Part shown: piece by piece, positions 3,632 through 4,051 of the stretch | How the letters are laid out: each line of letters starts with the position of its first letter | Numbering within the stretch: the first letter of the stretch is position 1 | NCBI RefSeq assembly: GCF_000026545.1 | Contig: NC_011601.1 | DNA length: 64,000 nt | Source: Escherichia coli O127:H6 str. E2348/69 | GTDB lineage: Bacteria; Pseudomonadota; Gammaproteobacteria; Enterobacterales; Enterobacteriaceae | Reading direction: 5' to 3' (one strand) | Notes under the pieces: model-generated | Databases searched by the model: none | What the model saw: the letters and a program-made list of their open reading frames with translations, nothing else | Told to the model about the DNA's origin: nothing | Made by a program: the position numbers and the translations under genes

Positions 3632-3707
3632 GCGGGAATAGCTCAGTTGGTAGAGCACGACCTTGCCAAGGTCGGGGTCGCGAGTTCGAGTCTCGTTTCC
3701 CGCTCCA
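3632..3707 (+). tRNA. glyV: tRNA-Gly (anticodon GCC)
   Basis: 76-nt GCGGGAATAGCTCAGTTGGTAGAGCACGACCTTGCCAAGGTCGGGGTCGCGAGTTCGAGTCTCGTTTCCCGCTCCA; cloverleaf with GCC anticodon; encoded CCA end. Confidence 0.97.
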
Positions 3708-3864
3708 AAATTTGAAAAGTGCTGCAAAGCACAGACCACCCAATCGCAGTATTTCGAATTGCGACAAGGCGGCAACTGAACGAATCCTTGGGAGCTTACA
3801 AAAGTAAGTGACTAAGGTGAGTGAAGGCAGCCAAGGCAGTAGCGGTTCGAAAGACGAAGATTAA

Positions 3865-3940
3865 GCGGGAATAGCTCAGTTGGTAGAGCACGACCTTGCC
3901 AAGGTCGGGGTCGCGAGTTCGAGTCTCGTTTCCCGCTCCA
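3865..3940 (+). tRNA. glyX: tRNA-Gly (anticodon GCC)
   Basis: Identical 76-nt copy. Confidence 0.97.
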
Positions 3941-3975
3941 AAATTTGAAAGTGCTGTAAAGCACAGACCACCCAA

Positions 3976-4051
3976 GCGGGAATAGCTCAGTTGGTAGAGC
4001 ACGACCTTGCCAAGGTCGGGGTCGCGAGTTCGAGTCTCGTTTCCCGCTCCA
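3976..4051 (+). tRNA. glyY: tRNA-Gly (anticodon GCC)
   Basis: Identical 76-nt copy, 35 bp after the second. Confidence 0.97.

Follow-up and report, generated by a model that had tools for sequence, protein, structure and literature searches.

An ERIC element in the glyV-glyX spacer accounts for the unequal spacers of the glyVXY tRNA operon of Escherichia coli E2348/69

The window analyzed here, a 64,000-nt stretch of Escherichia coli O127:H6 str. E2348/69 (NC_011601.1), an enteropathogenic E. coli (EPEC), carries three tandem tRNA-Gly(GCC) genes separated by two spacers of very different lengths. We found that the longer spacer, between glyV and glyX, owes its size to a 121-nt element of the ERIC family (also known as IRU or RU-1), which lies flush against the 5' end of glyX. 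The explanation that best accommodates the evidence laid out below, and which we consider very probable, is that the array is the glyVXY operon carrying an old ERIC, inserted early in the history of the Enterobacteriaceae and inherited mostly vertically since then, whose compact fold is selected while the element is present and whose loss is harmless.

The array itself is readily recognized. ARAGORN found exactly three tRNA-Gly(GCC) genes on the + strand of the window, and each of them displays a cloverleaf with a GCC anticodon and scores 69.1 bits against the Rfam tRNA family (RF00005; gathering score, 29). All three are 76 nt long and identical in sequence, as a preliminary description of this DNA had correctly reported with their coordinates and lengths, and they are the same as in K-12. 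According to the RefSeq annotation of E2348/69 and K-12, orn lies upstream of glyVXY, while datA and queG lie downstream, the latter on the opposite strand, and the three genes occupy this orthologous position in the window. Because of this synteny with orn and queG, and because positions 3350-4200 are 100% identical to E. coli E2348/69, the genes can be named glyV, glyX, and glyY, and the array is the well-known E. coli glyV-glyX-glyY operon.

The two spacers measure, as also described previously, 157 bp (glyV-glyX, 3708-3864) and 35 bp (glyX-glyY, 3941-3975). Spacer 2 corresponds over its full length to the first 36 nt of spacer 1 (3708-3743), from which it differs by one indel and one mismatch, and nothing in it matches the remaining 121 nt (3744-3864). 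A repeat search of the window returned the same organization, in the form of one family of three copies consisting of the tRNA and a 10-nt trailer (D1), and another of two copies consisting of the 36/35-nt spacer (D2). Tandem Repeats Finder did not report the array, because the ERIC interrupts its period. When the orn-queG region of K-12 is aligned with the window, 860 bases align with 13 mismatches, and K-12 shows a single clean gap of 121 bp, the placement of which is ambiguous by 2 bp (3744-3864 or 3742-3862) owing to a shared flanking AA. In other words, spacer 1 is the 36-nt spacer of K-12 plus one clean 121-bp insertion. The preliminary description had proposed that the array arose by duplication of a tRNA-plus-spacer unit, on the grounds that a motif of the long spacer was partly repeated before the third copy. 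This was right about the unit, and both quoted motifs are present, but the short-spacer module is repeated in full rather than in part, and duplication is not the cause of the unequal spacers, since the size difference comes from the insertion of a 121-bp ERIC that is absent from K-12. Within the short-spacer module, a hairpin with a 5-bp stem and a GCAA loop is predicted at 3719-3732, with a counterpart at 3951-3964. Its loop is of the GNRA type, and its stem varies by compensatory substitution between genera (GTGCT-GCAA-AGCAC versus GTATC-GCAA-GATAC among loci L006 to L070 of the species comparison described below); the hairpin is missing from the shortest spacers (23-27 nt), found in Klebsiella, Raoultella, and Kluyvera.

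The 121-nt insert is an ERIC/IRU/RU-1 element by its sequence, its palindromic stem-loop, and the dispersion of its relatives. The center of the insert resembles the sites of the primers used in ERIC-PCR (sequences from PMC3696847), with six mismatches to ERIC1R and three to ERIC2. As a reference, we used Wilson & Sharp's consensus for the E. coli ERIC/RU-1 (127 nt), as reprinted by Delihas 2007 (table 1a of PMC2759123). Positions 3750-3852 of the window align with positions 12-114 of this consensus, in + orientation and without a single gap, with 82 of 103 identical nucleotides (80%). The alignment score of 101 is ~37 standard deviations above the scores obtained with 500 shuffles (15.5 ± 2.3, maximum 26). 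The RNA is predicted to fold into a single long hairpin, with a minimum free energy of -41.6 kcal/mol (z -4.8), in which the terminal arms 3742-3765 and 3839-3862 pair (AATC...GATT). Relatives of the insert are dispersed over 42,072 places in 5,424 E. coli genomes (E <= 1e-3), with a median of nine per genome, and no annotated feature was found beneath the ERIC-family matches listed in these genomes. ARAGORN and Rfam detected no tRNA or Rfam family in 3744-3864, and a permissive cmscan of 3708-3864 (E <= 1) returned no curated family, only tRNAs, a sub-threshold YrlA match, and a chance plastid match. There is no other ERIC core in the 64-kb window. The element is slightly shorter than the ~127 bp of ERICs, with 121 nt here and 121-122 nt in all 17 orthologues, and the 6-nt shortfall falls in the termini, where the last ~10 nt at each end diverge from the consensus.

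The ERIC in the glyV-glyX spacer is unannotated in RefSeq, and the K-12 reference record has no repeat feature at the best K-12 paralogue, in the yoeF-tmaR intergenic region. A literature search found no paper placing an ERIC in glyVXY or in tRNA operons. The element is thus of a known kind, at a site that is apparently undescribed. The classic ERIC catalogues probably do not include it, given that it is absent from K-12, O157, and CFT073; the classic E. coli catalogue was reportedly drawn from these three strains.

The element is not restricted to E. coli. We compared Orn-anchored loci from 80 species, corresponding to the 80 best Orn matches. In 53 of them, the array could be read, that is, it has at least two tRNA-Gly copies and so at least one spacer; in E. 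albertii (L005), the nearest outgroup, the contig ends before the tRNA array, which leaves it outside the comparison. A full-length ERIC is present in a tRNA-Gly spacer in 15 of the 53 readable loci, belonging to at least nine genera: Escherichia, Citrobacter (six loci), Leclercia, Klebsiella oxytoca, Enterobacter asburiae, Kluyvera, Silvania, Superficieibacter, Buttiauxella, and one further genus. In all 15 loci, the ERIC is in + orientation and ends (...GATTAA/T) flush with the next tRNA, and it is found, depending on the species, in spacer 1, in spacer 2, or, as in Citrobacter youngae ATCC 29220, in both. These gly ERICs have in common a series of derived characters found in neither of the published ERIC consensuses: the termini AATCGCAG... 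and ...GAAAGACGAAGATTAA, CAACTGA for CAAGTGA, CCTTGGG...CTAAGG for CCCCAGG...CTGGGG, and GAAGGC for GAACGC. Five more loci, together with the second spacer of one of the 15, harbor derivatives from which the center has been deleted (z 5.7-10.3 versus shuffles). In these ~33-50-nt derivatives, a GCGGC direct repeat marks the junction of the two arms, and the sequence still ends ...GAAAGACGAAGATTAA against the tRNA. The spacers of Serratia and Rouxiella are unrelated.

Several individual arrays illustrate this variety. The array of C. youngae ATCC 29220 (L011, 3364-3751) consists of three tRNAs with a full-length ERIC in each spacer (156 and 156 bp), the two copies showing few differences, which speaks for copying of an ERIC-bearing spacer within the array. 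C. koseri has two centre-deleted copies, and UBA7338 combines a full-length and a mini copy within one array. The spacers of Shimwellia (L057) and of loci L062 and L072 contain a more diverged hairpin-plus-tail, which may represent an older remnant.

Comparison of the orthologues reveals strong constraint. The identity of the ERIC to that of the window ranges across genera from 79 to 94%, versus 45-64% for orn four-fold sites and 58-70% for the non-coding sequence upstream of glyV in the same pairs. After Jukes-Cantor correction, the median ratio of the ERIC rate to that of orn four-fold sites is 0.17, that is, ~6-fold slower evolution, a value that is approximate since the orn four-fold sites are near saturation. 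The ERIC is also more conserved than the 5' segment of its own spacer in 14 of 14 non-E. coli species (89% versus 71%), and this segment varies in length between 18 and 37 nt, with the ERIC constant at 121-122 nt. The RNAalifold consensus of 17 copies consists of 36 pairs, with 98.2% of cells paired. Eight of these pairs (27 cells) are altered on both sides, values reached by none of 500 shuffles and to be compared with 0-1 in slid registers. Several of the pairs that are conserved are of the G-U type. In each of the 17 copies, the predicted fold is more stable for the sense than for the antisense RNA (mean difference 14.7 kcal/mol), which suggests that the transcript of the tRNA strand is the target of selection. 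Conservation is similar in unpaired and paired columns (minor-allele fraction of 0.085 versus 0.077), and the hairpin is kept in the predicted fold of the whole glyV-ERIC-glyX precursor. As a separate observation, the left arm of the ERIC, CAACTGAACGAATCC (3773-3787), is complementary at 12 of 15 positions to positions 4-18 of the tRNA-Gly (3635-3649, 3868-3882, 3979-3993), including a perfect 7-mer, CAACTGA/TCAGTTG. This 7-mer stems from a G-to-C change specific to the gly lineage, the same change being a compensatory flip in the hairpin. Pairing of the left arm with the tRNA is unused in the predicted precursor fold.

What is known of the operon in K-12 suggests how such an element might be accommodated. 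The K-12 operon has been shown experimentally to have its own strong promoter downstream of orn (PMC10950094), and RNase E, which acts on the glyVXY precursor by direct entry and requires spacer RNA to be unpaired, has a major cleavage site there 1 nt past glyY (PMC4191395). The insertion spares the A/U-rich trailer and the GCAA-loop hairpin after glyV, and replaces only the last bases of the glyX leader. Because the trailer and small hairpin are left intact, we infer that the ERIC would be co-transcribed from the glyV promoter, would fold as an autonomous long hairpin in the sense RNA, and would be released by an RNase E cut in the A/U-rich trailer after glyV together with an RNase P cut at the 5' end of glyX, the released RNA presumably being degraded thereafter. 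Where the ERIC is present, selection would maintain its compact fold and its constant length, most likely because 121 inserted nt left unfolded in a very highly expressed tRNA precursor would disturb the folding or processing of the adjacent tRNAs, loss of the whole element being harmless. Selection against variants that unfold best accounts for the combination of strong constraint while the element is present and frequent harmless loss.

The same constraint might be taken to mean more, namely that the ERIC is a domesticated functional RNA. Such an RNA might serve the tandem tRNAs as a module for processing or insulation, act as a stable small RNA or sponge derived from the spacer, or modulate read-through from glyVXY into datA. 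Its ~6-fold slower evolution than four-fold sites, with unpaired columns as conserved as paired ones, speaks for such a function, and the compensatory changes, strand asymmetry, and fixed length agree with it, as do the centre-deleted derivatives, which still hold a hairpin and the ...GAAAGACGAAGATTAA tail beside the tRNA. In addition, ERICs change the stability of transcripts in Yersinia (De Gregorio 2005, as summarized in PMC2229807), and read-through from the operon controls IHF binding at datA (PMC10950094). However, the element has been lost repeatedly and with no obvious consequence in most E. coli and in many species, expression or interaction data were not found, and the conservation is equally well explained by selection against harmful misfolding variants. 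We therefore hold a domesticated RNA to be unlikely, and we are quite doubtful of its most complete version, in which the ERIC would have been a module under purifying selection since the early Enterobacteriaceae, acting as a stable regulatory RNA derived from the spacer, or through an effect on tRNA-precursor processing or on read-through into datA, and in which its presence or absence in E. coli would be functional.

As for the origin of the element, we scanned metagenomes with a gly-type signature (CAACTGA..CCTTRGG) designed to leave out the E. coli allele. All nine matches were in tRNA-Gly spacers, in the same orientation and with the same junction. Moreover, the more two species differ at orn four-fold sites, the more their ERICs tend to differ (Spearman 0.69, 135 pairs). 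Since there is no close paralogue in E. coli, since the distances correlate with those of orn, and since the metagenome matches are all at tRNA-Gly spacers, we conclude that the gly ERICs appear to descend from a single insertion that took place early in the Enterobacteriaceae and to have been inherited mostly vertically. We also conclude that their position and copy number were changed later, when the identical tRNA repeats underwent unequal exchange or gene conversion with one another. It might be argued instead that a mobile ERIC subfamily has repeatedly and independently targeted the site 5' of tRNA-Gly(GCC) in many genera. tRNA genes are indeed the targets of some mobile elements, and the occurrence of the ERIC in spacer 1, spacer 2, or both would fit with such a hotspot. 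Nevertheless, all copies have one orientation, one junction, and common derived substitutions, none of the nine signature matches lies elsewhere than at the tRNA-Gly locus, ERIC divergence tracks species divergence, and exchange or conversion between identical tRNA repeats explains the change of position more simply, which makes independent targeting very unlikely. Starting from a single ancestral insertion, recombination between identical tRNA copies would then have moved, duplicated, shortened, or erased the ERIC.

Within E. coli, the element is polymorphic. The locus is filled in 1622 of 5426 complete genomes; K-12 and O157 are without the gly ERIC, and CFT073 has spacers of 36 and 35 bp. 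When a spread sample of E. coli genomes was probed using unique flanks only, three array spans were seen: 580 bp, which corresponds to three tRNAs and two short spacers, 701 bp, which corresponds to three tRNAs and the ERIC (13 of 59 full-length matches), and 468 bp, which corresponds to two tRNAs. The same flank-identity classes hold both filled and empty arrays, and in five filled alleles taken from different backgrounds, spacer 1 is in every case the one that holds the ERIC. Strain 50EVAW has all 13 K-12 single-nucleotide polymorphisms (SNPs) in the flanks and an ERIC with two substitutions of its own. Filled and empty alleles therefore exist on one haplotype, and with K-12 flanks filled in this strain, the absence of the ERIC reflects recent precise loss. 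The short spacer 1 of the K-12 type would then be the derived, precisely deleted state, the precision of the removal being indicated by the spacer-1-specific bases that the empty spacer 1 retains. The most plausible route of loss is a short conversion tract templated by the spacer-2/glyY junction, which would have a 15-nt identity on the left and the whole tRNA on the right to rely on, with replication slippage across the hairpin as an alternative.

Two further arrays deserve mention here. E. coli CEA106S (L089) has a two-copy array whose sole spacer is of the spacer-2 type, which shows that unequal exchange between tRNA repeats also alters copy number within E. coli. The GTDB representative SCPM-O-B-8794 (L004), labeled E. 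coli, is filled, with a 156-bp spacer 1 and an ERIC differing at 4 of 121 positions. Its orn gene shows 93.6% nucleotide identity to the window (76% at four-fold sites), and it is probably a divergent Escherichia lineage rather than a typical E. coli.

The polymorphism could also suggest that an active ERIC has recently transposed into the glyV-glyX spacer, in E2348/69 or in some E. coli lineages, all the more so as ERICs are classed as mobile elements resembling MITEs, which are miniature transposable elements with inverted repeats (PMC2229807). This we find highly improbable. There is no donor, since the best E. coli paralogue is less than 90% identical and typically 77% (76.6% in genomes without a gly copy); orthologues with the same derived characters exist in at least nine genera; SNPs in the ERIC accompany divergence of the flanks, and a filled strain has K-12 flanks; and the insert has neither TA termini nor a target-site duplication. 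Filled and empty sites do exist, but their pattern is one of loss, not insertion. Finally, we give next to no credence to duplication alone, in which the long spacer would be a diverged or partly duplicated tRNA-plus-spacer unit such as a decayed fourth tRNA, for although the 36-nt module and the tRNA are truly repeated, the extra 121 nt resemble neither a tRNA nor spacer 2, match the ERIC consensus ~37 standard deviations above shuffles, and are missing as one block from K-12, and neither ARAGORN nor Rfam returned a pseudo-tRNA in the long spacer.

A number of points weigh against an old, vertically inherited ERIC kept folded by selection. The 80 species are not a designed phylogenetic sample, and the near saturation of orn four-fold sites noted above bears on how much slower the ERIC evolves. 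The MITE hallmarks are not demonstrable in the insert, as it has no TATA ends and no TA target-site duplication, only ambiguous AA flanks, and because the termini lack TATA...TATA and the TA duplication, the original insertion event is not reconstructable. Such an absence is, on the other hand, expected for an old and diverged copy. Some exchange between species may have occurred via the identical 76-bp tRNA arms. The ~70% of E. coli genomes and many species without the gly ERIC make it clearly dispensable, which is a poor fit with a positive function. Lastly, no expression or Hfq-interaction data were found for the gly spacer, which is not listed in the text or in the available part of the supplementary tables of the EPEC study of RNA interactions by ligation and sequencing (RIL-seq).

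The features of the array and of its surroundings are listed in Table 1.

Table 1. Features of the glyVXY region in the window, and loci with centre-deleted elements
Feature	Position	Strand	Basis and remarks
Putative PglyV-X-Y, -35 TTGCAG (3547-3552), 16-nt spacer, -10 TATAAT (3569-3574)	3547-3583	+	Read from sequence
Putative G+C-rich discriminator of PglyV-X-Y, GCGCCTCCC	3575-3583	+	A/T-rich tract upstream of promoter
glyV, tRNA-Gly(GCC) copy 1	3632-3707	+	ARAGORN; Rfam RF00005, 69.1 bits; same sequence in copies 2 and 3 and in K-12
Short-spacer module of spacer 1: A/U-rich trailer AAAUUUGAAAA, hairpin, then AGACCACCCAA	3708-3743	+	Equals the entire K-12 glyV-glyX spacer
ERIC/IRU (RU-1), gly-locus lineage, 121 nt	3744-3864	+ (orientation of Wilson & Sharp consensus)	Absent from K-12; consensus alignment; RNA hairpin
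glyX, tRNA-Gly(GCC) copy 2	3865-3940	+	5' leader now the ERIC 3' end (...GAAGAUUAA then G)
Spacer 2: short-spacer module alone (empty state)	3941-3975	+	Sequence comparison; repeat search
glyY, tRNA-Gly(GCC) copy 3	3976-4051	+	ARAGORN; Rfam
DnaA-box-like site	4070-4078		1 mismatch
TglyV-X-Y terminator/attenuator: imperfect hairpin then UUUUUGUUG	4074-4110	+	Overlaps DnaA-box-like site; predicted fold -14.3 kcal/mol
DnaA-box-like site	4137-4145		Perfect TTATCCACA
DnaA-box-like site	4299-4307		TTATTCACA
DnaA-box-like site	4311-4319 (- strand)		
Centre-deleted ERICs			L025, L027, L041, L044, L045 (spacer 2), L070 (spacer 1)

We infer the exact -35 and -10 hexamers of PglyV-X-Y from the sequence of the putative promoter region, which is the same in K-12. 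A consensus promoter and terminator scan reported neither PglyV-X-Y nor TglyV-X-Y, although both are known; the promoter was missed because its -35 matches the consensus at only three of six positions. In K-12, TglyV-X-Y is a leaky attenuator that overlaps DnaA box 1, and read-through from the glyVXY promoter enters datA, where it displaces IHF and thereby controls its binding (PMC10950094). Correspondingly, the segment directly 3' of glyY in the window (4052-4330) is datA, the DnaA-inactivating locus, with the leaky terminator hairpin at 4074-4101 followed by a U-run. Inside datA, RefSeq has an 18-codon open reading frame at 4285-4338 on the + strand (54 bp with stop, WP_010723271.1), in the position of yjeV, which overlaps the 3' end of queG on the other strand. 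The sub-threshold YrlA (Y RNA-like) match mentioned above spans 3890-4028 on the + strand, across parts of glyX and glyY, with 40.3 bits where the gathering score is 69, and most likely arises artefactually from the tRNA-like module of the YrlA family. Among the other species, the first tRNA-Gly lies ~1.06-1.2 kb after orn in the Klebsiella/Raoultella/Enterobacter group (L017, L021, L023, L027, L031) and in Salmonella arizonae (L030), versus ~0.2 kb in E. coli, which points to extra DNA between orn and the array in these six loci.

That a known repeat family explains an odd spacer length in a textbook tRNA operon is routine in itself. What gives the locus slightly wider interest is that it offers a clean natural case of a MITE-like element with orthologues in many genera, a slow rate of evolution, and a sense hairpin held by compensatory change, which is relevant to the long-standing question of whether selection acts on ERICs at the RNA level. 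It also shows how tandem identical tRNA genes move, duplicate, truncate, and precisely erase an insertion in their spacers. In the ~30% of E. coli genomes that are filled, including EPEC E2348/69, the ERIC would add 121 structured nt to the transcript that feeds datA control. If the element were domesticated after all, its presence in 30% of E. coli and absence from 70% would amount to a functional polymorphism in tRNA-Gly supply or in the control of replication initiation.

Comparison with known systems places the gly ERIC as follows. It resembles the ERIC family (Sharples & Lloyd 1990; Hulton et al. 1991; Wilson & Sharp 2006; PMC2759123) by the 80% identity of its core over 103 ungapped columns, its long-hairpin palindrome, its intergenic location within a transcription unit, and its dispersed relatives in every E. 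coli genome. For ERICs, the criteria of a MITE are terminal inverted repeats, 5'-TA-3' termini, and target-site duplication (table 1 of PMC2229807). The gly copy differs in having 121 rather than 127 nt, diverged ends, and neither TATA nor TA duplication, as well as lineage-specific substitutions, among them compensatory flips (CCCCAGG/CTGGGG to CCTTGGG/CTAAGG, and G-C to C-G at CAAGTG/GAACGC). It also lies between two tRNA genes and not beside protein-coding genes, and K-12, O157, and CFT073 are without it.

In Yersinia, co-transcribed ERIC hairpins modulate mRNA stability in an orientation-dependent manner through an RNase E site at their 3' end (De Gregorio et al. 2005, as summarized in PMC2229807 and PMC10969869). 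The fixed orientation of the gly ERIC and its favored sense-strand fold are reminiscent of this summarized behavior. However, ribosomes are described there as unmasking the site at the 3' end of translated genes, whereas the gly ERIC sits in an untranslated tRNA precursor, and the mechanism is inapplicable as described because the gene upstream of the gly ERIC is an untranslated tRNA. The glyVXY/datA region of K-12 (PMC10950094, PMC4191395) has identical tRNA genes and the same promoter region, short-spacer modules, terminator, and DnaA boxes, but its spacers are 36 and 35 bp with no ERIC, and the published work on transcription and processing was all done on this ERIC-less allele. In Rickettsia, palindromic elements (RPEs) are inserted in the tmRNA and RNase P RNA genes (Ogata et al. 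2002, as cited in PMC2229807). They too represent palindromic repeats tolerated in a stable-RNA transcription unit, in their case within the mature RNA, in contrast to the gly ERIC, which lies in a spacer that is removed. The closest analogy for a possible activity may be the 3' external transcribed spacer (3'ETS) of leuZ, which Lalaouna et al. in 2015 are said to have found to be a functional tRNA-spacer RNA; by analogy, spacer RNA freed during tRNA maturation could have an activity of its own.

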